A stretch of DNA of 64,000 bases, from contig OZ245050.1 of NCBI GenBank assembly GCA_965224525.1, positions 410,021 to 474,020 on the forward strand, in the 5' to 3' direction. The position numbers and the translations under genes were made by a program. A model generated the notes under the pieces. That model was not told the origin of the DNA. It searched no databases and saw only the letters and a program-made list of their open reading frames with translations. The DNA comes from Granulosicoccus sp. (GTDB lineage Bacteria > Pseudomonadota > Gammaproteobacteria > Granulosicoccales > Granulosicoccaceae). Positions 1,707 to 23,895 of the stretch are shown here, in pieces (positions within the stretch are counted from its first letter, which is position 1; the number at the start of each line of letters is the position of its first letter).

Positions 1707-2456
1707 TCAAGCGGGCAGTGGCAGTTCATTATTCACCAAAAAACAATCGATGGGAAAGCGGATGACTTCCCGGGCGTCTACTTGCTTGAATGACACGTCC
1801 GTTGCACTGGTTTCGCAAAACCACTGGCTCATCTCCCGAGGCTTTTTCTGAACAAAGGCATTCGGGGTAAACAGGCCCACACAGGTGCCTTTTTCCGGGT
1901 CACGTACAGATTGATACTCAAACACATCAACCGCTGCCTCTCTCATGCTGGAGCCCAACAATTGACTGGACTGGTAGCTCGACGGGTGAGCCAACTCAGC
2001 AAGGTATTCATCGAACGGCGCGACGTGAAGTTGTATACCGCTGGATGTTTTATAGTTGACAGAAAACAGAGTGTGCTCGGTACGCATCTTGTCCTTGACA
2101 GAATCTGCATCCATCGAAAACCAGAAGACCATCCGGTAGTAGGCTGACTCAGCCAACGCCACCTCAATACCACAACCGCCATAGAATATTCCAGGCTCGT
2201 GAGTACGGCCAAAACGAGACCCCCACTTCAATGGCGGATAGCGAAATGGTGTTTTCAAAAGATAGTGATAAGTGTCGCTGTCTTCCGGGAATGACGGCTT
2301 GATGCTCTCGAGCATCTCCTCCAGAAGCGCTTGCTCCTCAAGGGTGTCTACATAGCTCATCGTGGCTACTTGCTGCTGGCTCTCTACCAGTCGAAACAGT
2401 TCACCCTGCAGGAAGCCTGTATGTTGCGATCCTTTACGAGTCTGCCAGATCATCAA
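1707..2456 (-). CDS. RES-domain toxin of a RES-Xre (ParST/MbcTA-type) TA module
   Basis: A 249-aa protein with the conserved ...RYPPLKWGSRFG...FYGG... core of RES-domain proteins. It overlaps the upstream Xre-like antitoxin by 4 nt. A paralogue lies at 17001-17774. Confidence 0.8.
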   Translation of the reverse strand: MMIWQTRKGSQHTGFLQGELFRLVESQQQVATMSYVDTLEEQALLEEMLESIKPSFPEDSDTYHYLLKTPFRYPPLKWGSRFGRTHEPGIFYGGCGIEVALAESAYYRMVFWFSMDADSVKDKMRTEHTLFSVNYKTSSGIQLHVAPFDEYLAELAHPSSYQSSQLLGSSMREAAVDVFEYQSVRDPEKGTCVGLFTPNAFVQKKPREMSQWFCETSATDVSFKQVDAREVIRFPIDCFLVNNELPLPA

Positions 2457-2824
2457 AGCTTGGCGCGGATAGCATCAGTGAATCGTAAAACCGTCATCAG
2501 ACCCTGAATAGTTTCAATCTGTTTTGCCGGCACGCCTCCCGTAAGCTTGTTGGGAGAATGCATGAAGTGGCTAATCCATTCCCTGTCACCACCGGTGAGC
2601 GCGAACAAGGCACGTGCCAGACGTACCAGTAACAGAGCCAGTTCGCCTGGCTTGGATTTCGGGTCAAGAGACGGGTTCTGTTTCAGCCGGCTGATTGCCG
2701 TTCTATGCATCCCCAGCACTGTCGCCAGTTCAGACTGCTTGAGCCCGAGCTGTTCCGCTGCATTCAGTACCGCTTTAACCAATACCGCTTCAGGGGAGGG
2801 TTTGATAGATTCCAATGCTGGCAC
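2453..2824 (-). CDS. Xre-like (DUF2384-type) antitoxin partner of the RES toxin (ParS/MbcA-like)
   Basis: A 123-aa protein carrying an HTH (LKQSELATVLGMHRTAISRL) and the C-terminal DUF2384-like ...LTGGVPAKQIETIQGLMTVL motif. It sits immediately upstream of the RES gene in the same operon. Confidence 0.75.
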   Translation of the reverse strand: MPALESIKPSPEAVLVKAVLNAAEQLGLKQSELATVLGMHRTAISRLKQNPSLDPKSKPGELALLLVRLARALFALTGGDREWISHFMHSPNKLTGGVPAKQIETIQGLMTVLRFTDAIRAKL

Positions 2825-3267: not shown

Positions 3268-3739
3268 ATTCTTTATCGATACAAATATCCTGATCTACAC
3301 ATTTGACCGATCCAGCCCATCGAAGCGTAAAACAGCAATCAGTCTGGTTGAAACAGCTTTAGCCTCCGGCCTCGGATGTATCAGTTTTCAGGTTGTTCAG
3401 GAATGCCTGAATGTGTTGACCCGAAAATTTCGTGTGCCGCTGGATGCCGAACAGGCGCGCAATTATCTACAAACCACATTGATGCCTGTTTGTCGCGTGC
3501 ATTCGTCTATTCCGCTCTATGAAAGAGCGATTGATCTACACGAACGATGGCAGTTCAGCCTGTACGACACGTTGATTCTTGCTTCAGCGCTTGAGGCAAA
3601 CTGTTCTATTCTGTTCAGTGAGGATATGCAGCATAAACAGAAGATTGAATCCCTGGTGGTTATCAATCCGTTTACCGATACCCAACAGGTCAATGATGTA
3701 ACGGACAAATATCAGGTAGATAGCCCGGAGCATCCGTGA
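3257..3739 (+). CDS. vapC: PIN-domain ribonuclease toxin VapC
   Basis: MSDRFFIDTNILIY... carries the N-terminal acidic PIN motif. The 160-aa size and the overlap with the upstream small antitoxin gene fit a VapBC pair. Confidence 0.8.
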   Translation: MSDRFFIDTNILIYTFDRSSPSKRKTAISLVETALASGLGCISFQVVQECLNVLTRKFRVPLDAEQARNYLQTTLMPVCRVHSSIPLYERAIDLHERWQFSLYDTLILASALEANCSILFSEDMQHKQKIESLVVINPFTDTQQVNDVTDKYQVDSPEHP

Positions 3740-3902
3740 ATAGCACAGGTAACAGGTTGTAAATTCATAGTGCGTAGTAGGTTAGGCCCGCGGTTCCGAT
3801 ATTTTGGGCTGCTACATCGGCGAGTCAAAACGGCGGCTGGCAAAAGCGTTTGCCGATGTGGCCTTTTTGCGTTTGAGGTTGTGGGTGCCGTATGCTCTGC
3901 GT

Positions 3903-4460
3903 ATGAGCAATGCAGCGATCGACCGCGCAACTTACGTGGATATTCTGAAGTTGCCGGAAAACATCACGGGTGAAGTCATCAACGGGGTGCTTTATCAGCA
4001 ACCACGCCCGGCGCCGAGGCATGCCTATGCATCGTCCCGCCTGGGGGCGGCCATCAATTCCCCGTTCGATCGTGGGAAAGGCGGCCCGGGTGGCTGGTGG
4101 ATTCTTGATGAACCGGAATGCCACCTGGGAGCCGATATCCTGGTTCCGGATATCGCAGGCTGGCGCCGTGAACGCATGTCCTCTTTGCCGGATACGGCCT
4201 GGTTTGAATTGCCGCCTGACTGGGTTTGTGAGGTGTTGTCGCCTTCAACTGCCAGTAAAGACCGTATAGATAAACAGGGTGTATACCTGCGTGAGGGTGT
4301 TGGATTTCTCTGGTTTATCGACCCGGAGGCTAAAACACTGGAAGCCTTTCAGTTGACATCGGGCAGTTGGCTGCTCATTGCGGCACTAAGTGGTGAGGAT
4401 CAGGCGGCGGTTGCACCTTTTGACGACGTGCCGTTTGATCTGGGTGAGTTGTGGGCATGA
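3903..4460 (+). CDS. Uma2-family (DUF820) PD-(D/E)xK-like putative endonuclease
   Basis: The ...LSVDDY.../...ELI.GE.....P...H motif class is present. The internal Met gives a 185-aa product, typical of Uma2. The ORF track frame opens at 3804. Confidence 0.65.
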   Translation: MSNAAIDRATYVDILKLPENITGEVINGVLYQQPRPAPRHAYASSRLGAAINSPFDRGKGGPGGWWILDEPECHLGADILVPDIAGWRRERMSSLPDTAWFELPPDWVCEVLSPSTASKDRIDKQGVYLREGVGFLWFIDPEAKTLEAFQLTSGSWLLIAALSGEDQAAVAPFDDVPFDLGELWA

Positions 4461-4573
4461 GATGGCGCAGGCATAGAGGCGCTATTCTCGTCCGGGCATC
4501 GTTAAACTCGTGAGTGTCACCTGAGTGGCCCCACCATGGGACTAACATACCCGGAAAGGTACAGTAACAGATC

Positions 4574-7252
4574 ATGACAACCCGTAAATCAACCAAACTG
4601 ACACTGCACGACAAACTCTCTCGGCTGACATTTGTGCAGGCCTGCAAACTGCTGGGGCCCGATGGCGCCGGGTTTATCAGTCGCGGCGGGCGCTTCGACA
4701 TCGATATCGATCAACAGGTGACTCTGACCCGCCAGCAGTTCCGTCTTAACCTTGTTGGGCGCAAGCCATCGGTTGTCACCATTAAACTGGCAGACACCGC
4801 TACCCGGCGACTGGCCTGGCATTGCTCGACATCAAACGGTGCCTGCGATGAAGTGGGGGCTGCGTTGTCGCTGATTCTCGAAGAGAAAACTGCACTGGGG
4901 CTGGCAGCGGCACCGGATAGCCCGTTGCTACGTGCTGATCTCAGTGAGCTGGAGATCAACGCACTCGAAGTGACTGCGCGTGAAGAACGTGCAAAAAAAG
5001 AGCGCATGACGCTACGCTCAGCCAACCCCAAAACCCCCTGGACCGACTACCAGGTCACCAATAAAGCGTCGGGTAAAACCTATCGAGTGGCGTTGCGTGG
5101 GCATCATCCGGGTGAGTCGTATTGTTCCTGTCCCGACTATCGCAAAAATACCTTTGGCCTTTGCAAGCACACGATTCATGTATTGAACAAGGTGAAGCGC
5201 AAGTTCAGTGCCGCACAATTGCGACGCCCATTCAAACTCAAAGAGATTATCGTCTACCTGCAGTACGGTAAATCAGTGCAATTGCGCGCGGGTGTGCCCG
5301 ACAAGATTGATCGTGACGCTGAACGCTTGTTAAAACAGTACCGTAAGGGTTCCGTCAAGTCTATTCCAGCGCTGTTACGCGCCGTTGGAAAACTGGAGAA
5401 CGCGGGCCACACGGTCACTATTTATCCCGACGCCGAGCAGTACATCCAGCAGCGTTGCTGGCAGGCAAGAATCGAAAAACATGTAGCAGAGATTCGCAAG
5501 AAGCCAGCGAAACATCCATTGCGCAAGACGTTGTTGAAAGCCGAGTTGCTGCCGTATCAGCTCGATGGCATCGCGTTTGCGGCAGGAGCCGGCCGCGCCG
5601 TGCTTGCCGACGATATGGGTTTGGGTAAAACCATCCAGGGCATAGGTGTGGCGGCGCTGCTCAAGCGTGAAGCGAATATCTCGAGAGTTCTGATCGTTTG
5701 TCCCGCGTCACTCAAATCACAGTGGCGTGCAGAGATACACAAATTTTCTGATTTGGATTGCCAGCTGGTGGTGGGTAGTTCCGATAGCCGTGCCGCCCAG
5801 TATGACAACGACTGTTTTTTCACAGTGTGCAACTATGAGCAGGTGCTGCGGGACATATTGAGCATTGAGCAGGTACGTTGGGATCTCATCATTCTTGACG
5901 AAGGTCAGCGCATCAAGAACTGGGAAGCCAAGACCACACGCGTGATCAAGTCATTGAAGTCCCCTTTCGCCCTGGTGTTGTCGGGCACGCCACTGGAAAA
6001 TCGTATTGATGAGCTGTACAGCATTGTCGAGTTTATTGACGATCGCCGCCTCGGCCCCGACTTCCGATTTTATCAACGGCACCGCGTGCTGGATGACAAT
6101 GGCCGGGTTATCGGCTTTCAACACCTTAAGGAACTGCGCAAGAACCTCAAACCGGTGCTGCTGCGGCGCACGCGCGCCTCGGTGCTCGATCAGCTCCCGC
6201 CACGTACGACGGATATCGTTCGCATAGCGCCCACCGAAGAACAGCTCGAGTTACATGGTGCGCACATGAGAATCGTCAACAGCGTCATTGGTAAACCTTT
6301 TCTGAGCGAGATGGATTTGCTGCGTCTGCAAAAAGCCCTGTTGATGTGCCGCATGTCAGCTGACAGCACCTTCCTTTGCGACAAGGAGGCACCCGGTTAT
6401 TCCAGCAAGCTTGAAGCCATTGCGGATTTGTTCGATCGCATATTCAGCGATCCACACCACAAGGTTGTGTTGTTCTCCGAGTGGACGACCATGCTGAATC
6501 TGATTGAACCGCTACTGAAAAAACGCTCTATCGGTTTTGTGCGCCTGGATGGATCTGTGCCACAGAAAAAACGCCCGGCGCTGGTCAGTCAATTCGAGGA
6601 AGACAAGCAGTGTCGCTTGTTCATGGCTACCAATGCGGGTTCAACAGGGCTTAACCTGCAAATTGCCGACACCGTGATCAATGTGGACTTGCCATGGACA
6701 CCGGCGCTGCTGGAACAGCGCATTGGCCGCGTACACCGGATGGGGCAGAAGCGCCCCGTGCATGCATTTGTTCTGGTAACCGAAGACACTCTCGAAGAAA
6801 GCCTGTTGGCCACGCTGTCTGCCAAGCATGAGCTGGCACTGGCAGTACTTGATCCGGATTCGGATGTCGACTCCGTTGATCTGACCACCGGTATTGAGGC
6901 GCTGAAACAACGTCTCGAAGTGTTGCTCGGTGCACAGCCAGAAGCGGAGCGTGATGAGTCACAACGACGTGACGTCGACACCCAAACCAGAGCGCTGGCT
7001 GATCGACAACGCGTGTCGGAGGCTGGCGGACAGTTGCTGAGCGCGGCGTTTAACTTTCTCAGTGAAGTGATACCAGCACAGCCTGACACACCAGCATCGC
7101 AGGCACTGGCGACAGACCTGAAGCAGCGTTTTTCCGACTGTGTTGAACAGGGTGAAGATGGCAAACCGCAATTGACAATTTCGTTACCTGATAATGCGGC
7201 ACTGGATACCCTGGCTGAGTCGTTGGCGCAGTTGTTGGCTGCCCGGCAGTAG
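4574..7252 (+). CDS. SWIM zinc-finger plus SNF2-family (Swi2/Snf2) ATPase/helicase
   Basis: SWIM motif CSCPDYRKNTFGLCKHTIH. SNF2 ATPase motifs LADDMGLGKT, DEGQRIKN and a C-terminal HELICc region (LDGS...ATNAGSTGLNLQ...). Length 892 aa. Confidence 0.85.
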   Translation: MTTRKSTKLTLHDKLSRLTFVQACKLLGPDGAGFISRGGRFDIDIDQQVTLTRQQFRLNLVGRKPSVVTIKLADTATRRLAWHCSTSNGACDEVGAALSLILEEKTALGLAAAPDSPLLRADLSELEINALEVTAREERAKKERMTLRSANPKTPWTDYQVTNKASGKTYRVALRGHHPGESYCSCPDYRKNTFGLCKHTIHVLNKVKRKFSAAQLRRPFKLKEIIVYLQYGKSVQLRAGVPDKIDRDAERLLKQYRKGSVKSIPALLRAVGKLENAGHTVTIYPDAEQYIQQRCWQARIEKHVAEIRKKPAKHPLRKTLLKAELLPYQLDGIAFAAGAGRAVLADDMGLGKTIQGIGVAALLKREANISRVLIVCPASLKSQWRAEIHKFSDLDCQLVVGSSDSRAAQYDNDCFFTVCNYEQVLRDILSIEQVRWDLIILDEGQRIKNWEAKTTRVIKSLKSPFALVLSGTPLENRIDELYSIVEFIDDRRLGPDFRFYQRHRVLDDNGRVIGFQHLKELRKNLKPVLLRRTRASVLDQLPPRTTDIVRIAPTEEQLELHGAHMRIVNSVIGKPFLSEMDLLRLQKALLMCRMSADSTFLCDKEAPGYSSKLEAIADLFDRIFSDPHHKVVLFSEWTTMLNLIEPLLKKRSIGFVRLDGSVPQKKRPALVSQFEEDKQCRLFMATNAGSTGLNLQIADTVINVDLPWTPALLEQRIGRVHRMGQKRPVHAFVLVTEDTLEESLLATLSAKHELALAVLDPDSDVDSVDLTTGIEALKQRLEVLLGAQPEAERDESQRRDVDTQTRALADRQRVSEAGGQLLSAAFNFLSEVIPAQPDTPASQALATDLKQRFSDCVEQGEDGKPQLTISLPDNAALDTLAESLAQLLAARQ

Positions 7253-7697
7253 AACTGAATCCGGGAGACACGCTTTGCCGTACCCGGTACTTCCACTGAC
7301 ACGCGGTGTGTTTACTGCCGCCACCGGGAAGTTACTGATCGGATCAACAGGTGACTCGGCACCGGATACCTGGGGCCGGCGGTTAATGCAGCGAACAGAG
7401 CGACGCAACGCTGAACGGGAAGGGCGGATGAACGTACCTGTTCTCTGGATTTGCTGGAAGAGGCGGCCGGGTTGTTTGGTCTTGCACTGTCAGATGCGCG
7501 GGCAATCATCAAATCGGTTGCTATGGCGACTCGCCAGTGGCGAACGGCAACGGCATTTGAACACGATGACCTTGAGCGCGCCTTGCTTGTTGTCATAGTT
7601 AATACCAGCGGGCAGGGGTTGTCGGCAGCCAGGCGGAAGCGTTTTACTGAATCGCCCTGCAGCCGATAGTCTGCTTACCCCCAATGGATGTCCCTGC

Positions 7698-9392
7698 ATG
7701 GCAACCCTCATACCGCCCGTCAACATTGCCTCCATTGAGCCCTATAGTGAGCAACAGGTCATTGCTGCATTGATGGAGCAGCTACCGGCGGAATGTCGGC
7801 TGTATCACAACTTCGAGATTTTGACGCGTAGCGAAAAGACTGGCAAGAACAAGGGGACGGTCTTGCAGGAAGGGGAGATCGATGCTGTCGTGCTATGGCC
7901 AGGCAAGGGTTTGCTGGTACTGGAAGTGAAAGGCGGCGAAATTCGATACTGTGCTGAACAGTCCCGGTGGACAAGCAAAAACAGAAACGGTACTCACGAC
8001 ATCCAGGATCCGTTTCAGCAAGCTAAAAAAAACATGTACAGACTTATCAAGTCGATCGAGGGGGAGACCGGATCGAAGTTAAAAAATGCGTTGACACATG
8101 GTTTTGCAGTTATCTTCCCAAGCTCCCGAAGTGGGGGTCCGTTACCACACGGCGCTGATGCCGCAATCGTCTGTGATGCAAAGCGTCTGGAAAGCATCGG
8201 TCGTTTCGTTGATGGTGCGCTGAAACTCTGGCGCCGTGATTCAAACAAGCCGGCTCAGATGTCATTCGATTTCGAACAGGTACATCGTGCGATGTTGCCG
8301 GCTTTCAACCTGATGCCCTCGTTGAAGTCGCGCGTAGCCGGAGACAATGAACAGCTGTTGCGCTTGACTGAAGATCAGAGGAAGTATTTAAGCTTTGCCA
8401 GTAACATAAAAAGGGTGCGAATTAATGGCGTTGCAGGTTCTGGTAAAACACTGCTGGCGGTTGAGCAGGCGAGACGTTATAGCCGTGCCGGTCTGCGCAC
8501 CTTGTTGTTGTGTTACAACAAGTCACTGGCTGCCTGGATTCATGAGACGGTGGTTGTAGAGTCGGGTGATGCGCCGGTTGATGTGCATACCTTCCATGAC
8601 TTTTGCGCGCGTGCATGTAAAGAAGCTGTAATTACCTTCGACCCTTCAACTGGCGATGACTTCTGGACAGACCAGACGCCTGAGTTGTTGGCAGAGGCGA
8701 GTCACGCCATCCAGCCCTACGATGCTATTGTTGTTGACGAGGGGCAGGACTTTCGCGAAACCTGGTGGCTGGCGATTGAAGAGTGCCTGGTGAAAGACGG
8801 TCGATTGATGATTTTCTGCGATCCCCAGCAGGATATATTCGGTGCGGATGGGCTGGATGCAATTGATGTTGGTGATAGCATACTGGAGCTGCCTGAGAAC
8901 TGCCGGAATACTCAACACATTGCGCGTTTTTGCGATCATATCACTGCAGTCGAGACGTCTTCACCTGATAGTGCTCCGTCAGGCGTTCCGGTTAAATTAC
9001 AAGTAGAAGCATCGGATAACAAACGTCTGGCAAGAATCGAGGAGTTGCTGGATGGCTGGATCAAGCAGGAAGGTTTGTTGCCTTCACAAATTGCCATTTT
9101 GTCGCCATGGCGTCCGGAAAAAACCTGCCTGGCTGATGTTGAACAGGTCGGCCGTCATCAATTGACAAACAGCATTGAAGACTGGCGGAAAGGCAAGGGT
9201 GTTTTGCAAACAACAGTGCGATCATTCAAGGGTCTGGAAGCCGATGTGTTGCTACTGATTGATATCCCGAAACCCGATGCGCATAGAGCCTTCAGCACCG
9301 CAGATTATTATGTTGCCTGTTCACGGGCGAAGAGTGTTCTGCATGTGTTGGCCAAAGAGACGGCTGTCAAGAGTCTGGAAAAAGCTGCCTGA
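7698..9392 (+). CDS. NERD (nuclease-related domain) fused to a UvrD-like SF1 helicase/ATPase
   Basis: N-terminal EIDAVVLWPGKGLLVLEVKGG NERD signature. Walker A GVAGSGKT, Walker B VVDEGQD and a UvrD_C-like KGLEADVLLLID motif. Length 564 aa. Confidence 0.8.
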   Translation: MATLIPPVNIASIEPYSEQQVIAALMEQLPAECRLYHNFEILTRSEKTGKNKGTVLQEGEIDAVVLWPGKGLLVLEVKGGEIRYCAEQSRWTSKNRNGTHDIQDPFQQAKKNMYRLIKSIEGETGSKLKNALTHGFAVIFPSSRSGGPLPHGADAAIVCDAKRLESIGRFVDGALKLWRRDSNKPAQMSFDFEQVHRAMLPAFNLMPSLKSRVAGDNEQLLRLTEDQRKYLSFASNIKRVRINGVAGSGKTLLAVEQARRYSRAGLRTLLLCYNKSLAAWIHETVVVESGDAPVDVHTFHDFCARACKEAVITFDPSTGDDFWTDQTPELLAEASHAIQPYDAIVVDEGQDFRETWWLAIEECLVKDGRLMIFCDPQQDIFGADGLDAIDVGDSILELPENCRNTQHIARFCDHITAVETSSPDSAPSGVPVKLQVEASDNKRLARIEELLDGWIKQEGLLPSQIAILSPWRPEKTCLADVEQVGRHQLTNSIEDWRKGKGVLQTTVRSFKGLEADVLLLIDIPKPDAHRAFSTADYYVACSRAKSVLHVLAKETAVKSLEKAA

Positions 9393-9565
9393 TTTGCGTA
9401 TCTGCCAAACTTTCGGTACAGCAGCCTGGAAGCCATCTTCAAAAGGTACACCTCGGTTAGGACAGCACACTATCGAAGCAAATTCGGCATCCTCTTGCTG
9501 CGCAGTTCGTCTATCACTTGCGCAGAGAGCCTTATTGTTCCACTCTTGAATATATGAGGACGGAA

Positions 9566-10090
9566 TCAAAAATCGATCTCCACCGGTTCATTGATCACAA
9601 GCATCCATTTAGTGTCTTTTTCGTGCAGTCCCGTAACTAATTCAGTCAGTGGTTTGGCAGAAGGGTCCAGGAGTTTCATCGACTTGGCCTTTCTGGCAAA
9701 CGGTTCCAGTGCCTTGCCTTGACGTGTGTGACCAGTATGGTCCAGCAGATAACCAAGCCGGCGCACAGCTGTGTTCTCGTAGGCCATGGCCGCTTTCGTC
9801 AGTTTACCTGGATCGGCCTTTGCTCCAATATCCCGGGCAATCTGGGCTACACCATCAATGCCTGCAGCCTTGTGGAAATAACGGGTGCAATCCAGGAGGG
9901 TCAGCTCCACACCGGCCACCTTGGCGAAACCCGCCTCGCTTTTCATTTGCGAAAGCCCATCGGGCAGATTGATTTTGGCAAAGGTCGCCGGAGCCGGGTA
10001 AATGAACTGGAGCCGGTGACGGCCTAAAGTAAATGCCCGCAACTGCTTCGGGACAATTACTTGAAAGACCATAGTCGCCTGATCGGCCAC
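9566..10090 (-). CDS. Possible AbiEi-type (type IV TA antitoxin) C-terminal-domain protein. Orphan, with no adjacent AbiEii NTase.
   Basis: The ...RLGYLLDHTG... C-terminal motif is recalled from the AbiEi family. This identification is uncertain. Confidence 0.3.
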   Translation of the reverse strand: MADQATMVFQVIVPKQLRAFTLGRHRLQFIYPAPATFAKINLPDGLSQMKSEAGFAKVAGVELTLLDCTRYFHKAAGIDGVAQIARDIGAKADPGKLTKAAMAYENTAVRRLGYLLDHTGHTRQGKALEPFARKAKSMKLLDPSAKPLTELVTGLHEKDTKWMLVINEPVEIDF

Positions 10091-10176
10091 CCTGTCCTCT
10101 GGCCGCAGGATCAGATAGAAACCGCGACGGGGGGATACCAGACGCTGCTTGCTGGCTATAGTTTTTATGGGTATTA

Positions 10177-10479
10177 GTGGGTATATATGGGTATGAAGCT
10201 TACTACCTGGCTTTGCGCCAAACGCAGAGAACGATAGACAATCCCCGACCCGATTGGCAACCCTGGATTGTCTATTTTCTGCGCGCTCTTCAACAACAAA
10301 AACGCCGTCTGGAGAAAAAGATCGAGCGAGAGCGCATCACCATAGGCACCTTACCCGAGCTGTCGCTTCTGATTGTCGACGCTGTGAATGAGCGTGGCCG
10401 CATCGCCATGAGCGAGATAGTTTCCCTTACCGGTGCAAACCGCAACACGATCAAAAAGCACCTTGCATCATGCGCCTGA
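10177..10479 (+). pseudogene. C-terminal fragment of a Fic/DOC-family protein (winged-helix tail only)
   Basis: The 100-aa ORF resembles only the C-terminal wHTH region of Fic proteins (...RNTIKKHL...). There is no Fic core motif and no upstream partner. Confidence 0.35.
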
Positions 10480-10489
10480 TAAAAACCGC
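10466..10489. repeat. 24-bp direct repeat copy 1 (catcatgcgcctgataaaaaccgc), flanking the BrnTA cassette
   Basis: Identical apart from one extra A to 11100-11124. It contains ATGCGCCTGATAAAAACCGC, which is the start codon and first codons of the nuclease-helicase gene. Confidence 0.75.
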
Positions 10490-10498
10490 TTCGAAATT

Positions 10499-10732
10499 TC
10501 AGGGTTCTACATCCTGGCAGTCGGGATTGGCGTTCTTTTCCTGGTCATTTATCAGATTTCTCAGTGCTTCGTTAACCGATTCTTCCGTTGGGAAGGCGGC
10601 GGCAACATCCGGACTCAGTAAAACCAGGTTTTTGCTTTTCTGGTAAGCCGCGTAGTGTTTGCCACGAACACCATTGCTCAAATTTTTGTCGGAATAGTCT
10701 GGCCTCATATCATCGATGTCATTTGTCTTCAT
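10499..10732 (-). CDS. brnA: BrnA-type antitoxin
   Basis: A 77-aa protein immediately downstream of, and overlapping, brnT. The BrnTA gene order is toxin first. C-terminal RHH-like region. Confidence 0.7.
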   Translation of the reverse strand: MKTNDIDDMRPDYSDKNLSNGVRGKHYAAYQKSKNLVLLSPDVAAAFPTEESVNEALRNLINDQEKNANPDCQDVEP

Positions 10733-10991
10733 AAATATTTCTCTCGTGCTTGTTCATGTCTCTGGCGCTGATAATTCGAACTTCATTCTCGGAATCGGTA
10801 TGCGAGACTACTAAAAACCTTTGAAATCTCGAACAACCAAAAGTCAAATACCTGTACTCCAACCGAGAATGGTCCGGATCTGAAAATGTTACTGCCAGCG
10901 GATCATTAAAAACCGTAGTAGCTTCGTGGAATGTGACGCCGTGTTTCTTTTCGTTCGCGACGCCTTTATATTTGTCCCATGTAAACTCCAT
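10719..10991 (-). CDS. brnT: BrnT toxin (DUF497 RelE-fold ribonuclease)
   Basis: MEFTWDKYKGVANEKKHGVTFHEATTVFNDPLAV... matches the conserved BrnT N-terminus. Length 90 aa. Confidence 0.8.
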   Translation of the reverse strand: MEFTWDKYKGVANEKKHGVTFHEATTVFNDPLAVTFSDPDHSRLEYRYLTFGCSRFQRFLVVSHTDSENEVRIISARDMNKHERNIYEDK

Positions 10992-11099
10992 CCGAACATT
11001 CTAACAGTGGTGTCAAAAATCAACAAATCATGAATATTTCTGCGATATATCAAGCTTATGCATCTGAAAACGCCGTAGTTCGGTAGCCAATGGTCTTCA

Positions 11100-11124
11100 C
11101 ATCATGCGCCTGATAAAAAACCGC
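11100..11124. repeat. 25-bp direct repeat copy 2 (catcatgcgcctgataaaaaaccgc)
   Basis: Second copy of the repeat at 10466-10489. It overlaps the start codon of the 11104 gene. Confidence 0.75.
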
Positions 11125-11631
11125 CCGCACTACTCGCCAACCGATCTGGTTCGCTACCTTGGTAGCCCCTATGCCTCCTGGTATGACCGCTATGCCTTGC
11201 ACAAACCGGAACACGTGCAGTGCAAGGACCCGGAAGATGCCATGTCGAAGACGCTTGCGCATCGCGGTTATGCTCATGAGGAAGGGGTCACCGAGGCGCT
11301 AAAGGCAGATGGCATGACAGTTGCCAAACCCGAGAGTAAAAACAAGGAGCAACAACTGGCCGAAACCATCGCCTTGATGCATAGCGGTGTGGATGTGATC
11401 GAACAGGCGGTATTGAGCCTCGATAACATTACCGGTTATGCGGATTTTCTGGTGAAGGTGCCAGGGGCCAGTGATCTGGGTGACTGGCACTATGAGGTCT
11501 GGGATGCCAAGCTGGCGCGCAGTGTCAAACCATCGTTCGTGATTCAGCTGTGTTGTTATACCGAGATGGTGGTTGCCATTCAGGGGCGGCAACCTGAGTC
11601 GGTGCGTAGCGCTTGGCTCGAACGAGACTGA
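11104..11631 (+). CDS. N-terminal part of a RecB-like PD-(D/E)xK nuclease (TM0106-family type). It reads into the next ORF through a frameshift.
   Basis: GYADFLVKV...YEVWDAKLARSVKPSFVIQLCCY is the RecB-family nuclease motif III (D-x-K). The frame ends at TGA 11629-11631 while the homologous protein continues in the overlapping frame. Confidence 0.7.
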   Translation: MRLIKNRPHYSPTDLVRYLGSPYASWYDRYALHKPEHVQCKDPEDAMSKTLAHRGYAHEEGVTEALKADGMTVAKPESKNKEQQLAETIALMHSGVDVIEQAVLSLDNITGYADFLVKVPGASDLGDWHYEVWDAKLARSVKPSFVIQLCCYTEMVVAIQGRQPESVRSAWLERD

Positions 11632-14569
11632 GACAGTTCAGCTCAACACTTGCTACGCCTTCTACCTGCGGCTCAAGCAGCAGTTTATGCAGGCGCAACA
11701 GGCATGGTCGCCAGAGACACCGCCCGATCCTGCGTATTACAAGTATCACGGGCACTGGTCGAAGCAGGCCAGGTCGGAGCTGGCAGAGCGCGATCATCTG
11801 TGCTTTACAGCAACCATCACGCGGACCCAGATCAAGCACTTTCATGCGGCGGGTATTGACACCCTGCAACAGCTGAGTGAAACGGCTCTTGAGCATGTAC
11901 CAGGTGTATCCCCGGTGCTTCTCGATCGGCTGAAAGTGCAGGCTCGGTTGCAGCGCAGCAGTATCGGCAAGGCGCGCCCCGACTATCAACTGGTCGATCA
12001 TGACAAGGAACCGGCGACCGGCCTGCAGCTACTGCCACCGCACTCGGCTCAGGATGTGTTTTTCGATATGGAAGGCTTTCCGTTGATTGAGGACGGGCTG
12101 GAATACCTGTGGGGTTGTACGTATTTCACTGATAACGGTGAACGAACGTTTCTGGATTTCTGGGCGCACGATGCGGTCGCTGAAAAACGTGCCTTTGAGA
12201 ATATCATCGATTGGGTCTATGCCCGTTGGAAGGCTGACTCATCAATGCATATCTACCACTATGCAAGCTATGAAGTGTCAGCCTGTCGCCGTTTGATGGG
12301 CCGCTTTGGCACACGCGAGTATGAGCTTGACCAGTTGTTGCGTAACGAGGTGTTTGTTGATCTCTATCGTGTTGTGCGTCAAGGGCTGATCGTTGGGGAG
12401 CCGCGTTATTCGATCAAGAATATCGAGCTGCTCTACCGTGGCAAGCGTGAGACGGAAGTTAGTGGTGGCGGTGAATCCATCGTTGTGTATGAGAACTGGC
12501 GTGAAGCGTTTGCCGCAGGTGAGGAGGGTGGTTGCTGGCAAAGCTCCGAAACGCTAAAGCAGATTCGTGACTACAACATCGACGATTGCAACTCTACTCA
12601 GGAGCTGGTGGACTGGTTACGCGCCCGGCAGCTCGAAGCAAATATCCCCTATGTCGGCGGTGCTGCTGAGGTGATTGTGGCGGAACCGAAGGAAGAGCAG
12701 CTGGCCGTACAGATATTGCGTGATCGTTTAATGAAGAAATCCGACGCGTTGCTTGAAACTGATCCTGACGAGGCAGCGCTATGGCAAACACTGGGTGGTG
12801 TACTGGAATTTCACTGGCGCGAGGCCAAGCCCGGATTCTGGCGTTTGTTTGATCGCCTGGGTGCAGACCCCGCCGAGCTGGCAGATGATTCCGATTGTCT
12901 TGCGGATTGCGTACGCACAGAAGCTCCGCCTTTCAAGGACAAGCCATCCGCTCGTAATCTCACCTATGAATACCGCTTTGACGCGGGTCAGGAATTCCGT
13001 GGAGCTGGCAAGACATTTCAAATCGCCGGTTATGAAACAGAAGACGGCAAGAGCTTGAAAGTGGATCTGATAGCGGATAGCAGTGATCTGGAGAATGGTC
13101 TGGTCGCGCTGAAATGCCGGCAAGAACCGCCGGATTTTCTGTCATTGGTGTTGTCAGATTTCATTAACCCGGCGCCCATTCCAAAGGCTATCGCCGCGGT
13201 TGTGACTGACATTGAAGCAGGTAGTGGGAGTCACGGCGCGGTACTGTCATTGCTGCGACGCGATAAGCCGACATTTGATGAATCATTCATGCGGCAACTG
13301 GCACAACGCAGCGATGCGATTGCGCCCAGTAAATGCCCGACAGAAAAACTCCGGCAGATCACTGATGCGGTTAACTCATTGCAACAGAGTTGCCTCGTGA
13401 TTCAGGGGCCACCGGGCACTGGAAAAACCTATACAGCAAGTTGTGTTATCGGGAAGTTGTTGAAAGATGGCCATAAAGTGGGTGTGGCGAGCAACAGCCA
13501 TGCGGCGATAAACAACTTGTTACTGGCTACAGCGGGCTACTGTTCGGAAGTCAGTGTGGACGCTGCCATTACCTGTACCAAATATACCGAGGAGGGGATG
13601 GAGGAGGCCGGTGTGATGCAATGTGCCAATGCAGTGTTGGCAAATAATGTGCAACCCGGCAGTCTGGTAGGCACAACGGCCTGGGGTTTTTCTCGAGACG
13701 ACATGGCAAACACGCTGGACTACCTGTTTGTTGACGAAGCCGGGCAAGTGGCATTGGCGAACGTCATCGGTATGAGCCGTGCTGCTGATAACCTGGTTTT
13801 ACTGGGTGATCAAATGCAGTTGGGACAACCGACACAGGGAACCCATCCGGGCAAAAGCGGATCATCGGTGCTGGAATATATGATGGGTGAGCAAGCGACA
13901 ATAGCGGAAGACGAAGGGGTCTTTCTTGGTGCCGGCTTTCGCATGCACTCTGCCGTTAACCAATTTATCAGCAAGCAATTTTACGATGGTCGTTTGCAGT
14001 CACGCCCCGATAATGACGAACGGCGATTACTGTTGGATGCTGCACTCCATTCGGAGCTGTCAGATACCGGTGCGGGTGTGTTCTTTATACCGGTGACACA
14101 TGACGGCAATACGCAAAGTTCTGTAGAGGAGGCGCAACTTATCGCAGAACTGGTTAGCGGTTTGTTACGTGGTGAGCTGCGGGTTAAAGATGGATGCCCG
14201 CGCCCGCTGGTTATGGATGACATATTATTTGTCGCTCCCTACAACCAGCAGGTCAGAGTACTCAAAGACACACTGGGGCCGGACGCCAGAGTTGGCAGTG
14301 TAGACAAGTTTCAGGGTCAGGAAGCAGCGGTTGTGTTTTTAAGCCTGTGTGCCAGTGATGCCAGCGAGTCACCGCGCGGCCTTGGCTTTCTGCTCGACCG
14401 TCACCGAATCAATGTCGCTGTATCACGCGCACAATCAATGGTGATTATTGTCGGGCATCCGGAACTGGTCAGCGGGCCGGTTGATACGATGGCAGCGCTA
14501 GCGCAGGCGAATTTGTTTGCAGCGTTGGTGGAACAATCGTACCGACAGGGTGAAATTTCCATCGTATGA
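11573..14569 (+). CDS. Continuation of the same gene: rest of the TM0106-type nuclease region followed by an Upf1-like SF1 helicase (AAA_11/AAA_12). The intact protein would be about 1150 aa.
   Basis: Helicase motifs LVIQGPPGTGKTYT, YLFVDEAGQ, VDKFQGQEAAVV and INVAVSRAQ were read directly. The nuclease domain's motif III (ORF1) and the remainder of the nuclease region (ORF2) lie in different frames that overlap at 11573-11631. Confidence 0.75.
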   Translation: MPFRGGNLSRCVALGSNETETVQLNTCYAFYLRLKQQFMQAQQAWSPETPPDPAYYKYHGHWSKQARSELAERDHLCFTATITRTQIKHFHAAGIDTLQQLSETALEHVPGVSPVLLDRLKVQARLQRSSIGKARPDYQLVDHDKEPATGLQLLPPHSAQDVFFDMEGFPLIEDGLEYLWGCTYFTDNGERTFLDFWAHDAVAEKRAFENIIDWVYARWKADSSMHIYHYASYEVSACRRLMGRFGTREYELDQLLRNEVFVDLYRVVRQGLIVGEPRYSIKNIELLYRGKRETEVSGGGESIVVYENWREAFAAGEEGGCWQSSETLKQIRDYNIDDCNSTQELVDWLRARQLEANIPYVGGAAEVIVAEPKEEQLAVQILRDRLMKKSDALLETDPDEAALWQTLGGVLEFHWREAKPGFWRLFDRLGADPAELADDSDCLADCVRTEAPPFKDKPSARNLTYEYRFDAGQEFRGAGKTFQIAGYETEDGKSLKVDLIADSSDLENGLVALKCRQEPPDFLSLVLSDFINPAPIPKAIAAVVTDIEAGSGSHGAVLSLLRRDKPTFDESFMRQLAQRSDAIAPSKCPTEKLRQITDAVNSLQQSCLVIQGPPGTGKTYTASCVIGKLLKDGHKVGVASNSHAAINNLLLATAGYCSEVSVDAAITCTKYTEEGMEEAGVMQCANAVLANNVQPGSLVGTTAWGFSRDDMANTLDYLFVDEAGQVALANVIGMSRAADNLVLLGDQMQLGQPTQGTHPGKSGSSVLEYMMGEQATIAEDEGVFLGAGFRMHSAVNQFISKQFYDGRLQSRPDNDERRLLLDAALHSELSDTGAGVFFIPVTHDGNTQSSVEEAQLIAELVSGLLRGELRVKDGCPRPLVMDDILFVAPYNQQVRVLKDTLGPDARVGSVDKFQGQEAAVVFLSLCASDASESPRGLGFLLDRHRINVAVSRAQSMVIIVGHPELVSGPVDTMAALAQANLFAALVEQSYRQGEISIV

Positions 14570-15499: not shown

Positions 15500-15600
15500 T
15501 TCGGGCGAGTCTGGATCGGCTCAACCCGGGTCAAAGCGGTGCATCGGTGCTGGATTATCTGATGGGTGAGCATGCAACGATTGCCCAGGACAAAAGACAG
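15500..15600 (+). pseudogene. Decayed fragment homologous to the SF1-helicase gene (compare 13841-13920)
   Basis: NPGQSGASVLDYLMGEHATIAQD matches HPGKSGSSVLEYMMGEQATIAED of the 11573 gene at both amino-acid and nucleotide level (about 80% nt identity over about 65 nt). The flanking frame is broken. Confidence 0.5.
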
Positions 15601-15805
15601 CGTTGGTGGAGTAGCTGTATTGCCAGCTTATTCCAGACCATAAGCACGAATGCCGGAGCCTGTACAGCAGACAGTTTGTTCATCAGACTGCTGCCTGGTA
15701 CCCTGTCGTCCGTCACCACGACAAGCCACACAGCAATCACATCCATTCCCCGTGACAGACTGGACGCCACATGAAGTGCATGAAACAGTCTCTGCCTACT
15801 TGCAG

Positions 15806-16585
15806 ATGCTGACGCTTGAATTGTCCGGGCAGAGCTACAACAAAGCCGCAATAAATCGAGAGCTGATCGAAAAGCTGGATGATCGATCGAAAGCTGCTAT
15901 TGAGTTCAAACACGGCAATATCAGCGCGGCTTTGGTAGAGCTCGGCTTCCCGGTCGTTCAGGGGTATAAGCCCAGACGAAACTTTCAGCGGCGCGCACTT
16001 TTCGAGAGCCTTATCAAACAGATTAGTGAACGACACCTGCTTGATGACGCTGCTGTCAAGGCAGTAGAGCTACCGGCGACTGCTCCGGTTATTTCTGAAT
16101 TTGACAAGGTCATAACCCCTGCTCCTCGCCCGGAAGCATCAAACACAGGTGACTACAAACCGCCGTATTTGGCAAAGCGTGATTACATGGCGATAGAGGC
16201 GAGAAATCGCAGTCTTGGCCTTGCAGGTGAAAAGTTTATATTGGCCTATGAAATCTGGCGACTGAGACAACACGGTGTAAACAAGCTGGCTGACAAGGTT
16301 GAACACATTTCCGTGACACGCGGTGATGGTGCGGGTTATGACATTCTATCGTTCGAGGATAGCGGCAGGCCGCGCTACATTGAAGTAAAGACCACAGCGT
16401 ATTCAGAAAGAACGCCGTTCTGGATCAGTGCGAATGAATTGCGATTTGCCGATAACAACGATGTCGAATTTCGATTGGCGCGTGTTTTCGACTTCAGGAA
16501 ATCGCCGAAGTTTTTCACTCTGGCCGGGCCCGTAGGGCGTCACTGCGAGTTGGACCCGACAACCTTTCGAGCGTCGATACGGTAG
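15806..16585 (+). CDS. DUF3883-domain protein (predicted restriction-endonuclease-like fold). The start is uncertain; the open frame begins at 15650.
   Basis: The C-terminal ...GDGAGYDILSFEDSGRPRYIEVKTT...FWISANELRFADNNDVEFRLARVFDF region is characteristic of DUF3883. Confidence 0.55.
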   Translation: MLTLELSGQSYNKAAINRELIEKLDDRSKAAIEFKHGNISAALVELGFPVVQGYKPRRNFQRRALFESLIKQISERHLLDDAAVKAVELPATAPVISEFDKVITPAPRPEASNTGDYKPPYLAKRDYMAIEARNRSLGLAGEKFILAYEIWRLRQHGVNKLADKVEHISVTRGDGAGYDILSFEDSGRPRYIEVKTTAYSERTPFWISANELRFADNNDVEFRLARVFDFRKSPKFFTLAGPVGRHCELDPTTFRASIR

Positions 16586-16610: not shown

Positions 16611-16646
16611 TGCTGCGTACGCATCATTATGCTATGATGCGCTGCA
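16611..16646. promoter_or_regulatory. Palindromes (tgcgtacgca; gcatcat-tatgct-atgatgc) at the start of the second Xre-like antitoxin gene. Putative operator.
   Basis: Both palindromes were read directly. They overlap the antitoxin start codon at 16634. Confidence 0.4.
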
Positions 16647-17023
16647 TAAGCAGCATACAGGTCCCGTCGATGAACCAACCCCACCCAAAACCCGATGTAC
16701 ACGCCGTTCTGGCTGAAGCTACCCTCGCAGCGGCTGAATCTCTGGGCATGAGCCAGGCAGAACTCGGCAAGGTCATTGGCCGCGACCGCTCGCGCATCAG
16801 GCAAGGCATTCGTACCGATAGCAAATCTGGCGAACTGGCACTGTTGCTGATCCGCTGTTATCGCGGATTGTATGCGCTAGTGGATGGTGATGCTGACATT
16901 ATGCGTCACTGGATGGCGACCAATAATCGTGGCACCGGGGGTATTCCTGCCGAACAGATTCAGAGTGTTCAGGGTTTGACATCAGTGCTTGGTTATCTGG
17001 ATGCCATTCGTGGAAAAGTCTGA
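16634..17023 (+). CDS. Xre-like (DUF2384-type) antitoxin, paralogue of 2453-2824
   Basis: The same HTH plus C-terminal ...GGIPAEQIQSVQGLTSVL... motif as the first copy. It lies upstream of a RES gene. Confidence 0.75.
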   Translation: MMRCISSIQVPSMNQPHPKPDVHAVLAEATLAAAESLGMSQAELGKVIGRDRSRIRQGIRTDSKSGELALLLIRCYRGLYALVDGDADIMRHWMATNNRGTGGIPAEQIQSVQGLTSVLGYLDAIRGKV

Positions 17024-17774
17024 CAGTGCGATCTGGCAAGCTATAGAAAAGAAAGTCTCACCAGGCCTGATTGGTGGAACTCTACATCGGCTGGTAGAAA
17101 GTCAGGAGCAGGTTGCAACCGCCCGCCTGGTCGATGGCGATCTCGACAAACAGGCATTGCTTGAGGAACTGCTGGAGCCTTCCAAGCCACCGCGTGTTAA
17201 AGGCACAGAGCATCTCGATTATTTGCTAGCAACTCCGTGGCGTTATCCACCATTAAAGTATGGTTCACGGTTTGGTCAACGTTATGAAACCAGCCTGTTT
17301 TATGGTGGGTTGAGCGAGCAAACAACGCTGGCTGAAGGTGGCTTCTACCGATGGGTGTTCCTGTTGGATATGGACGAGTCGCCGAGCAAATTGCGTTCGC
17401 AGCATACAATGTATAACGCTCAATACCGAACTGAAAAAGGCTTGCGACTCAACAGCCCGCCGTTTGTTGAATTTGACTCAGAGTTGACTCACAAGTCACG
17501 CTATCAGGACAGTCAGGCACTGGGTTCTGCAATGCGAACTGCTGGCATAGAGGCTTTTGAATATGCGTCAGCCAGAGATCCCGCAGGTGGTAGTAATGTA
17601 GCCCTGATAGAACCAGTGGCCTTGATATCAACCAGTGCGAAAAAACAGAGAGCCTGGTTATGTACAACCAGCCAGCAAGAGGTTCTATTCAGTTATCGCG
17701 GGTCGCCTTCAGTCGTTAAACGTTTTCATATTGATGATTTCATGCTTGACGGGCGGCTACCGCGGCCAGCGTAG
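17001..17774 (+). CDS. RES-domain toxin, paralogue of 1707-2456 (the start probably lies within the overlap with the antitoxin)
   Basis: ...WRYPPLKYGSRFG...FYGG... is collinear with the first RES protein. The ORF track start is TTG at 16989; ATG at 17001 or GTG at 17010 are more plausible. Confidence 0.8.
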   Translation: MPFVEKSDSAIWQAIEKKVSPGLIGGTLHRLVESQEQVATARLVDGDLDKQALLEELLEPSKPPRVKGTEHLDYLLATPWRYPPLKYGSRFGQRYETSLFYGGLSEQTTLAEGGFYRWVFLLDMDESPSKLRSQHTMYNAQYRTEKGLRLNSPPFVEFDSELTHKSRYQDSQALGSAMRTAGIEAFEYASARDPAGGSNVALIEPVALISTSAKKQRAWLCTTSQQEVLFSYRGSPSVVKRFHIDDFMLDGRLPRPA

Positions 17775-23366: not shown

Positions 23367-23895
23367 TTGCATGACTTCGAGTATAAGATGGATCTTTCGC
23401 AAAGCGCACAGGAGTTACCAAGGAAACACCGACTGTCGGTGGATGATTACCATCGTATGGGAGAGGCTGGCATACTCGCGGATGGAGTCCGCGTTGAATT
23501 GATCGAAGGAGAGATCATCGATATGACACCAATTGGCAGTCGCCATGCAGAACCCGGCGGTTTTGGGTGACTTCTCGGAGCCACAGCCGGATTTTGCGGT
23601 ATTGAAGCCGCGTGATGATTTTTACATTGACTCTCATCCCCAACCAATGGATGTGTTACTGGTAGTGGAGGTTTCTGATTCTTCGTTGCGCTACGACCGG
23701 AAAATCAAAATGCCTCTTTATGCCAAATATGGCATGCCCGAAGCCTGGTTGATTGACTTGCAGGGTAGCACCCTAACGGTTCATCGTGACCCGCAGCCCG
23801 ATAGCTATGGCGACGTACGAGTGCTTACCGATTTGAGCAATATTAGCCTTGCAGCTTTGGCGGATGTGAGTATTGATCTTTCGGCGTTTTTTTAG
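23367..23895 (+). pseudogene. Second Uma2-family (DUF820) endonuclease gene, split by a frameshift
   Basis: ORF 23367-23570 (...ELIEGEIIDMTPIGSRHA...) and ORF 23533-23895 (...DFAVL...EVSDSSLRYDRKIKMPLYAKYGMPEAWLIDL...) are the two halves of one Uma2 protein, in frames that overlap over 23533-23570. Confidence 0.55.

Follow-up and report, generated by a model that had tools for sequence, protein, structure and literature searches.

Do three adjacent, co-directional genes within a defence island form one defence system? This question is raised by positions 3903-9392 of a stretch of 64,000 nucleotides (nt) from Granulosicoccus sp. (contig OZ245050.1; hereafter the window), for which a preliminary description had proposed a candidate defence module consisting of a Uma2 nuclease, a SWIM-SNF2 ATPase and a NERD nuclease-helicase fusion. 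All three plus-strand open reading frames (ORFs) are present at exactly the positions described, and their domain assignments agree with Pfam searches and with an alignment of the SWIM motif. The SNF2 and NERD-helicase products are identical to annotated proteins of a Granulosicoccus sp. metagenome-assembled genome (4.93-Mb contig). The defence-island setting was likewise confirmed, with abundant toxin-antitoxin (TA) and defence genes on both flanks. The interval is probably a patchwork and not one system, its three genes having been inherited independently within a TA/defence island of rapid turnover, and the recurrent companion of the NERD-helicase is probably a TM0106-family protein encoded outside of the interval. 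The genes concerned are the following (lengths in amino acids, aa).

3903-4460, plus strand: Uma2-family PD-(D/E)xK nuclease, 185 aa (Pfam Uma2, 80.8 bits with a gathering threshold (GA) of 27, 1.1e-22)
4574-7252, plus strand: SWIM-associated SNF2 ATPase, 892 aa (Pfam SNF2-rel_dom, 7e-43; Helicase_C, 2e-24)
7698-9392, plus strand: NERD (PD-(D/E)xK) nuclease fused to a compact superfamily 1 (SF1) helicase, 564 aa (Pfam NERD, 5e-12; AAA_19; UvrD)
11104-14569, plus strand: TM0106-family protein, ~1155 aa, frameshifted (TIGR03491; Pfam RNase_H_2, AAA_11, AAA_12)

Inheritance of the genes in the interval

A single module, with the SNF2 protein as putative translocase and with nuclease recruitment after the manner of DISARM or Zorya, is suggested by the adjacency and common direction of the three genes in a defence/TA island. 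A check for conserved co-occurrence, whose absence the preliminary description had itself named as a refutation, argues against it, since none was found in 87 SNF2-centred and 84 NERD-centred loci. The SNF2 set included 24 loci with N-terminally complete, full-length SWIM-SNF2 relatives; the underlying profile search of genome contigs was dominated by generic SNF2 motifs and gave at least three close SNF2 orthologues among the matches listed, and more orthologues were gathered separately. The NERD set included at least 80 further metagenome loci among the matches listed and three extra look-ups, and its clade frequencies are those of a sample. Not one of the 87 SNF2-centred loci was matched in tblastn searches with the Uma2, NERD-helicase and TM0106 proteins, and no Uma2 homologue was detected in either set. 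All-vs-all clustering of the ORFs from the 24 SWIM-SNF2 loci yielded no neighbour family that was present in more than two of them.

The annotated neighbourhoods of six SNF2 orthologues (62-78% identity) all differ. Genes found next to SNF2 orthologues include WYL and AAA genes upstream, combined with an HTH gene and an HsdM remnant downstream; an AAA_14/DUF4143 gene, with an integrase ~7 kb downstream; hypothetical genes and a HicA toxin gene; a Phd antitoxin gene followed by RecC/RecB; and genes for two hypothetical proteins of ~647 aa. A complete Wadjet JetABCD operon starts on the same strand 216 nt downstream of the SNF2 gene of a 74%-identical orthologue (L084-L086, 10892-17931). Across SWIM-SNF2 orthologues of 48-79% identity the neighbours vary by lineage, and Uma2 or a NERD-helicase was never among them. 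At the nucleotide level, blastn comparison of the window with the loci of the 78%- and 74%-identical orthologues (L081 and L084) found homology in the SNF2 gene only, beginning at its start codon and stopping within the gene. Conversely, neither a Uma2 gene nor an orthologue of the 892-aa SNF2 protein lies near the three closest NERD-helicase orthologues (83, 70 and 61% identity). The closest loci on either side thus contradict a module of the three genes.

One relic at the border of the interval and one probable remnant within it bear on the history of the locus.

3789-3856, plus strand: relic of an AAA+ ATPase gene, 68 nt, translating to RGSDILGCYIGESKRRLAKAFAD (84% identity to L088 in blastn, E 8e-14)
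7253-7697, plus strand: apparent frameshifted and internally deleted hipA-like remnant in a 445-nt spacer without intact ORF, whose three-frame translations resemble both ends of HipA

The first of these, just upstream of the Uma2 gene, encodes a typical AAA+ motif, and its counterpart in L088, the locus with the 83%-identical NERD-helicase, lies inside a 714-aa AAA+ gene upstream of the orthologous NERD gene. It thus appears to mark an older gene order of AAA+ followed by NERD-helicase. The second remnant, which separates the SNF2 from the NERD gene, is probably a decayed hipA gene: tblastn with its C-terminal-like fragment gave weak matches (E ~1e-2), every annotated one of which, among ten records listed, was a HipA-family gene, and a Pfam search of the putative hipA fragments was negative. 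Since the AAA+ relic lies upstream of Uma2 and the hipA-like remnant between SNF2 and NERD, a later entry of the Uma2-SNF2 segment is suggested, and both remnants argue against a common module. The simplest reading of these traces would be that Uma2, SNF2 and hipA arrived later in an older AAA+/NERD/TM0106 locus, which was partly overwritten. No direct or inverted repeats flanking the Uma2-SNF2 segment were found, and per-gene G + C content, overall and at third codon positions, did not separate the genes convincingly. Promoter and terminator sites predicted in 3600-11200 were no more numerous than in shuffled sequence and give no information on operon structure.

A module of the three genes would also be in line with PADLOC matches of the SNF2 protein to ZorD, DpdE and DrmD. 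These matches span the helicase core alone, and in NCBIfam the protein scored far under the cut-offs for DISARM DrmD (163 bits versus 950 for DrmD_b, 148 versus 610 for DrmD, in the helicase core only), ZorD of Zorya (117 versus 1500) and DpdE of Dpd (125 versus 500). The resemblance to these systems is thus apparently that of a generic helicase core. Among the window ORFs scanned (those shorter than 120 aa in part), no match to DrmA or DrmB, DUF1998/MZB, a methyltransferase (N6_Mtase), ZorA/B/C or partner genes of the dpd cluster was obtained. In favour of the module, some clusters with NERD-helicases of distant clades do include an SNF2-related gene, as discussed below. With the evidence from co-occurrence, gene neighbourhoods and relics taken together, a module of Uma2, SWIM-SNF2 and NERD-helicase is regarded as highly improbable, and the trio would then illustrate that adjacency in a defence island can be mistaken for a system.

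A clade-specific NERD-helicase/TM0106 pair

The genes of the three closest NERD-helicase orthologues each adjoin a gene for a 1150-1200-aa protein with RNase_H_2, AAA_11 and AAA_12 domains. This TM0106-family partner accompanies NERD-helicases of 83, 70, 61, 46 and 44% identity to the window protein (L088, L089/L090, L091, L179 and L092, respectively), so that it is present down to the 46%-identical (L179) and 44%-identical (L092) members, and it was found in addition in two distant NERD loci (L159 and L160). In a tree of 85 NERD-helicases calculated by the unweighted pair group method with arithmetic mean, the partner is present in five of the six other non-redundant loci of the window clade versus two of 76 elsewhere (Fisher p = 4.5e-6). 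Blastn of the window against L088 returned four matches only: the NERD gene (7637-9393, 80%), the partner gene (11085-14531, 83%) and two relics (3789-3856 and 15526-15594). The flanks of the pair are unrelated between the two loci, and so is the segment between its members, which contains an AbiEi fragment and BrnT in the window versus a HigB/HTH pair at the same place in L088. The NERD/TM0106 pair is therefore specific to the window NERD clade and has survived the complete turnover of its flanking and intervening genes. The features inserted between the NERD gene and the partner gene of the window are an antitoxin fragment and, at 10499-10991, a toxin gene with its small neighbour.

9566-10090, minus strand: C-terminal fragment of an AbiEi antitoxin gene (Pfam AbiEi_1, 2e-12; PADLOC AbiEi, 1e-41, profile positions 99-259 only)
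10499-10732, minus strand: 77-aa ORF adjoining BrnT in antitoxin position, without family match
10719-10991, minus strand: BrnT toxin gene (Pfam BrnT_toxin, 5e-25)

The partner combines a RecB/Cas4-like nuclease, an RNase-H-fold (DEDD-like) domain and a Upf1/Dna2-like SF1B helicase. Its assignment to the TM0106 family is based on TIGR03491, which the downstream ORF matches with 154.7 bits (cut-off 97.45); the match is divided over two ORFs, with the N-terminal piece on a separate one. Alignment with L088 located a -2 frameshift near position 11603, visible as a 2-nt gap in a GC repeat, and insertion of GC at this site restores a single 1155-aa ORF with all motifs. In the repaired protein the RecB/Cas4-like motif, the DEDD-like RNase-H-fold block and all SF1B motifs are conserved compared with eight homologues, and the helicase core is closest to IGHMBP2, Upf1, Sen1 and Dna2. 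The pairing of a RecB/Cas4-like nuclease with a Upf1-like SF1B helicase resembles eukaryotic Dna2, from which the partner differs by the additional RNase-H-fold domain. A Cys cluster occurs in the two alphaproteobacterial plasmid members in the alignment, whereas the window protein and the remaining aligned sequences lack it. A 24-codon relic downstream of the partner gene (15523-15594, plus strand; NPGQSGASVLDYLMGEHATIAQDK) resembles a conserved helicase block of the partner, shares 81% nucleotide identity with the L088 partner gene over 69 nt (15526-15594) and may be what is left of a second TM0106 copy.

Several observations weigh against a patchwork in which the NERD-helicase and the TM0106 protein are the true companions. 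The pairing is one-sided, as none of the 60 listed TM0106 plasmid accessions is among the 13 NERD-helicase plasmids in PLSDB, and the occurrence of the family on plasmids without a NERD-helicase clearly suggests that the partner functions without it. Order and orientation of the pair vary: the genes are in tandem in L091, L160 and L179 and convergent in L159; in L092 the two are encoded on opposite strands and separated by another gene, and in the window and L088 the intervening genes are TA genes. The partner is lacking in L180 (44% identity), which belongs to the clade, and in L181 (43%), which falls just outside of it, and the sample of the close clade is small, with seven loci. The frameshifted partner gene of the window is either a pseudogene or the product of an assembly error. 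As to the SNF2 protein, it may cooperate in trans despite its lack of a conserved neighbour.

Several of these points would be expected if all genes had single-gene functions, with the NERD-helicase acting alone like Nhi, the TM0106 protein acting alone as on most plasmids, and both being neighbours through a shared island lineage. This explanation accounts for the TM0106 family being mostly found without a NERD-helicase, for the variable order and orientation with genes interposed, and for the NERD-helicases of L180 and L181 that have no partner; moreover, Nhi shows that a nuclease-SF1 helicase protein can defend alone (10.1101/776245). It does not readily explain that both genes stay together from 83 to 44% identity while their surroundings are replaced, that the association is clade-specific and statistically strong, or that in many other NERD clades the protein is closely linked with another large helicase, which points to an accessory function. 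Independent action of all genes is thus considered rather unlikely. The pair may be a two-gene system or two stand-alone genes inherited together; judged from gene content and conservation, a two-gene helicase-nuclease defence is plausible.

On plasmids, the TM0106 family was detected in 75 PLSDB entries. The six plasmid neighbourhoods sampled contained BREX/TrlF, Abi/Hhe, an SbcCD-like pair, McrBC, a small SNF2 gene or nothing notable. The helicase gene beside TM0106 on Piscirickettsia plasmids was considered as a candidate NERD-helicase and turned out to encode a small SNF2 protein: on a Piscirickettsia salmonis plasmid (L184, 4506-9366) a 464-aa SNF2-family helicase is encoded directly upstream of the TM0106 gene, an adjacency unlike anything in the window.

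A third, optional component of the pair may be a tandem-AAA+ ATPase, whose gene adjoins the NERD gene in three partner-positive loci (L088, 2590-4734; L091, 1157-4287; L092, 1763-4912). A WYL/WCX module stands beside it in L091 and forms a fusion with it in L092, but was not detected in L088. In the window, the 68-nt relic is all that survives of this gene. The NERD/TM0106 pair is absent as a system from PADLOC 2.0, and none of the papers searched described a NERD and Upf1-like pair, TM0106 or an anti-phage system with a SWIM-SNF2 protein.

Relatives of the NERD-helicase and a proposed mechanism

The putative active sites of the NERD-helicase are intact: the PD-(D/E)xK residues E60, D62, E76 and K78, the Walker A motif (G244-T251) and Walker B (D347/E348) are invariant in 18 homologues. 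With the AlphaFold2 model (predicted local distance difference test score, pLDDT, 80), the best Foldseek matches were SLFN11/SLFN14, followed by Upf1, Dna2 and UvrD, and thus cover helicases of both the SF1A and the SF1B kind; the match to PF09848 (DUF2075) is weak (0.0017). Nhi of Staphylococcus epidermidis (SERP2475), which consists of a PD-(D/E)xK nuclease and a DUF2075 SF1 helicase, defends as a single gene (10.1101/776245). The preliminary description had pointed to this architecture, and it rightly applies to the window protein, which combines an N-terminal PD-(D/E)xK nuclease with a DUF2075/Schlafen-like SF1 helicase in a defence-island setting with intact motifs. In contrast, its PADLOC scores for Nhi (23.7 bits) and AbiO (27.7 bits) derive from residues 223-272 in the P-loop region only, and while Nhi is a single gene, the window NERD clade nearly always occurs with the TM0106 helicase-nuclease and its sister clades with DruE-like or DrmAB proteins. 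The NERD-helicase thus shares the architecture of Nhi without being a member of its sequence family.

The best PADLOC model for the protein was RTasNERD-Hel, matched over the full length (187 bits, 1.8e-55). This NERD-helicase family has been described as co-located with seven of 17 UG34 reverse transcriptases (PMC9226505). The window locus shares this full-length match with the UG34-associated proteins and differs by having no adjacent UG34 reverse transcriptase among the scanned ORFs; no reverse transcriptase was found in the scanned window ORFs or the annotated neighbours of close NERD orthologues. Gabija was rejected as an assignment, with partial GajB matches of at most 32.7 bits and no OLD/TOPRIM gene in the neighbourhood, and so was Mokosh (MkoA/MkoC), where the MkoA match (1e-44) covers the C-terminal helicase half only and a PLD domain is missing. 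A profile search of viral contigs found NERD-helicases of at most 36% identity, the window clade not being among them.

Other clades of the family are associated with different large helicases. In 22 of the 80 listed metagenome loci a DruE-like helicase (PADLOC 2e-129) is encoded directly upstream of the NERD-helicase; it has a median length of ~1670 aa, reaches 2154 aa and carries an MrfA Zn-binding domain. In four of the 80, DrmA and DrmB precede the NERD-helicase. Comparable arrangements occur on plasmids of Leisingera, Azospirillum, Sphingomonas (NERD gene after that of a giant DUF3883 protein) and Burkholderia (after that of a sigma-70-like protein). Within the DruE-like/NERD clusters (L095-L169), a protein of ~350 aa (349 aa) is encoded directly downstream in seven loci, and five have an SNF2-related gene in the vicinity; on the Leisingera plasmid (L188), the DruE-like gene is followed by the NERD-helicase gene, with an SNF2-related gene on the opposite strand.

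The gene array of ARMADA type II ends with ArmD, an accessory helicase of GajB-like type that follows a YprA-family helicase (PMC12458937). The DruE-like/NERD cluster looks like an ARMADA- or Druantia-related system in which the NERD-helicase comes after the YprA-family helicase in the manner of ArmD. The DISARM likeness noted in the preliminary description therefore has to be divided: it fails for the SNF2 protein, which lies far under the DrmD cut-offs, and holds for distant NERD relatives (26-39% identity to the window protein) that sit directly downstream of DrmA and DrmB or of a DruE-like protein, sometimes with an SNF2-related gene nearby. The window itself differs from DISARM, Druantia and ARMADA by the absence of YprA, DruE, DrmA, DUF1998 and methyltransferase genes among its scanned ORFs, and its partner belongs to another helicase superfamily (SF1B, Upf1/Dna2-like) than that of the YprA-centred systems. 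Because the protein of other clades is so closely associated with another large helicase, an accessory role of the NERD-helicase beside such a protein is favoured over a role as lone actor.

If both genes of the window pair act together, the SF1 motor of the NERD-helicase would, by ATP-driven translocation, feed DNA to its own PD-(D/E)xK site as in Nhi, and the TM0106 protein would contribute a RecB/Cas4-like nuclease, a DEDD-type exonuclease fold and a 5'-3' motor of the Upf1/Dna2 type. The two proteins could form a dual-motor, multi-nuclease machine that unwinds and degrades invader DNA from ends or replication intermediates, in which the NERD-helicase would be a swappable nuclease-motor accessory working with a large helicase partner. 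RecBCD, AddAB and AdnAB are dual-motor helicase-nucleases that process DNA ends. The likeness of the window pair to them is an analogy only, namely two SF1 motors, each with a PD-(D/E)xK nuclease, encoded side by side, whereas its proteins are unrelated to them in sequence beyond the superfamily level. It is accordingly no more than a tentative proposal, possible but short of probable, that the NERD-helicase and TM0106 form an undescribed two-gene helicase-nuclease defence, with a WYL-regulated tandem-AAA+ ATPase as a potential third component, and that the NERD family is a swappable cassette for at least three unrelated chassis (DrmAB, DruE-like and TM0106). If true, TM0106 would be a new chassis among helicase-centred defence systems, and a two-gene construct would be simple to assay.

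SWIM-SNF2, Uma2 and the surrounding island

The SWIM motif of the 892-aa SNF2 protein scores 16.9 bits in Pfam, under the GA of 19.6. The call stands nevertheless because 15 aligned orthologues show no variation at the CxC...CxH residues (C184, C186, C197 and H199). The motifs GLGKT, DEGQ and QR..R.HR.GQ are likewise invariant, so that a complete SNF2 ATPase core (motifs I-VI) is present, which in a PDB profile search was closest to Sulfolobus SSO1653 (1z63, 8e-65). The SWIM motif lies within a family-specific N-terminal module (residues 1-320); all matches to this module were either gene fragments or lay at the N-terminal end of proteins no longer than ~970 aa. Structure prediction with AlphaFold2 gave a poor model of the SNF2 protein (pLDDT 59). 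SWIM-associated SNF2 ATPases of the SsoRad54-like clade are common in mobile and conflict contexts (PMC5512222). The window protein resembles them by its core near SSO1653 and the invariant SWIM motif and differs by the distinct 320-aa N-terminal module. It is thus predicted to be a dsDNA-translocase-type ATPase with a zinc-finger N-terminal module, and apparently a solo gene of this clade that has no conserved partner.

A function as housekeeping remodeller of DNA or RNA polymerase, RapA-like or related to repair, with an incidental location in the island, would agree with the very high conservation of the family. Its best 120 matches share 60-79% identity over the full length at a constant size near 890 aa, the named ones from Planctomycetota and Acidobacteriota (60-65% identity); some neighbours are ordinary metabolic or repair genes (GntP permease, RecBCD, glucosamine isomerase), and a conserved defence partner is lacking. 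A RapA-like assignment, which the preliminary description had named as an outcome that would refute it, does not apply, as the protein reached 91.7 bits with the RapA model PRK04914 (cut-off 576). In addition, the genes beside the closest orthologues are Wadjet, WYL/AAA or TA genes or that of an integrase, another and dissimilar SWIM-SNF2 protein is encoded in the window, and the high identity across phyla together with the variable contexts suggests horizontal transfer. A housekeeping function is hence judged improbable. As the closest orthologues lie in variable regions, we lean towards a role related to conflict or mobile elements. The family is large, highly conserved and apparently horizontally spread, and it would be a sensible candidate for single-gene screening.

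The second SWIM-SNF2 protein of the window (34464-37811, plus strand; 1115 aa) has a SWIM motif above the Pfam threshold near its N-terminus and shares only 33% identity with the 892-aa protein in the core. In L091 the NERD/TM0106 pair is followed at ~2 kb by the gene of an orthologue with 70% identity to the 1115-aa protein, an indication of old synteny between this SWIM-SNF2 gene and the pair.

The Uma2 product matches the PADLOC single-gene candidate PDC-S03 (62.5 bits, 1.1e-17) and, going by its distribution, seems to be a solo PD-(D/E)xK nuclease gene unlinked to the SNF2 and NERD genes. Uma2 genes are scattered in the Granulosicoccus sp. genome. A second ORF with this domain in the window (23533-23895, plus strand; 120 aa) covers the C-terminal part of the profile only and has no detectable similarity to the first.

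The trio is flanked upstream by a RES-Xre pair and a PIN toxin gene with a small ORF 5' of it, and downstream by the AbiEi fragment, the BrnT toxin gene with its small adjacent ORF, an AbiEii fragment, a NOV_C/DUF3883 gene, an Xre-RES pair and a second PIN gene. The gene of the NOV_C/DUF3883 protein (15650-16585, plus strand; 311 aa) follows that of TM0106 at ~1 kb; proteins with DUF3883 are also encoded directly upstream of the NERD-helicase on the Sphingomonas plasmid (L189) and near the TM0106 gene on a Sphingobium plasmid (L186). The RES-Xre pairs (1707-2824, minus strand; 16634-17774, plus strand) bracket the island in opposite orientation. With only 45-47% identity between their proteins, the two pairs are old paralogues rather than terminal repeats or the result of a recent duplication.

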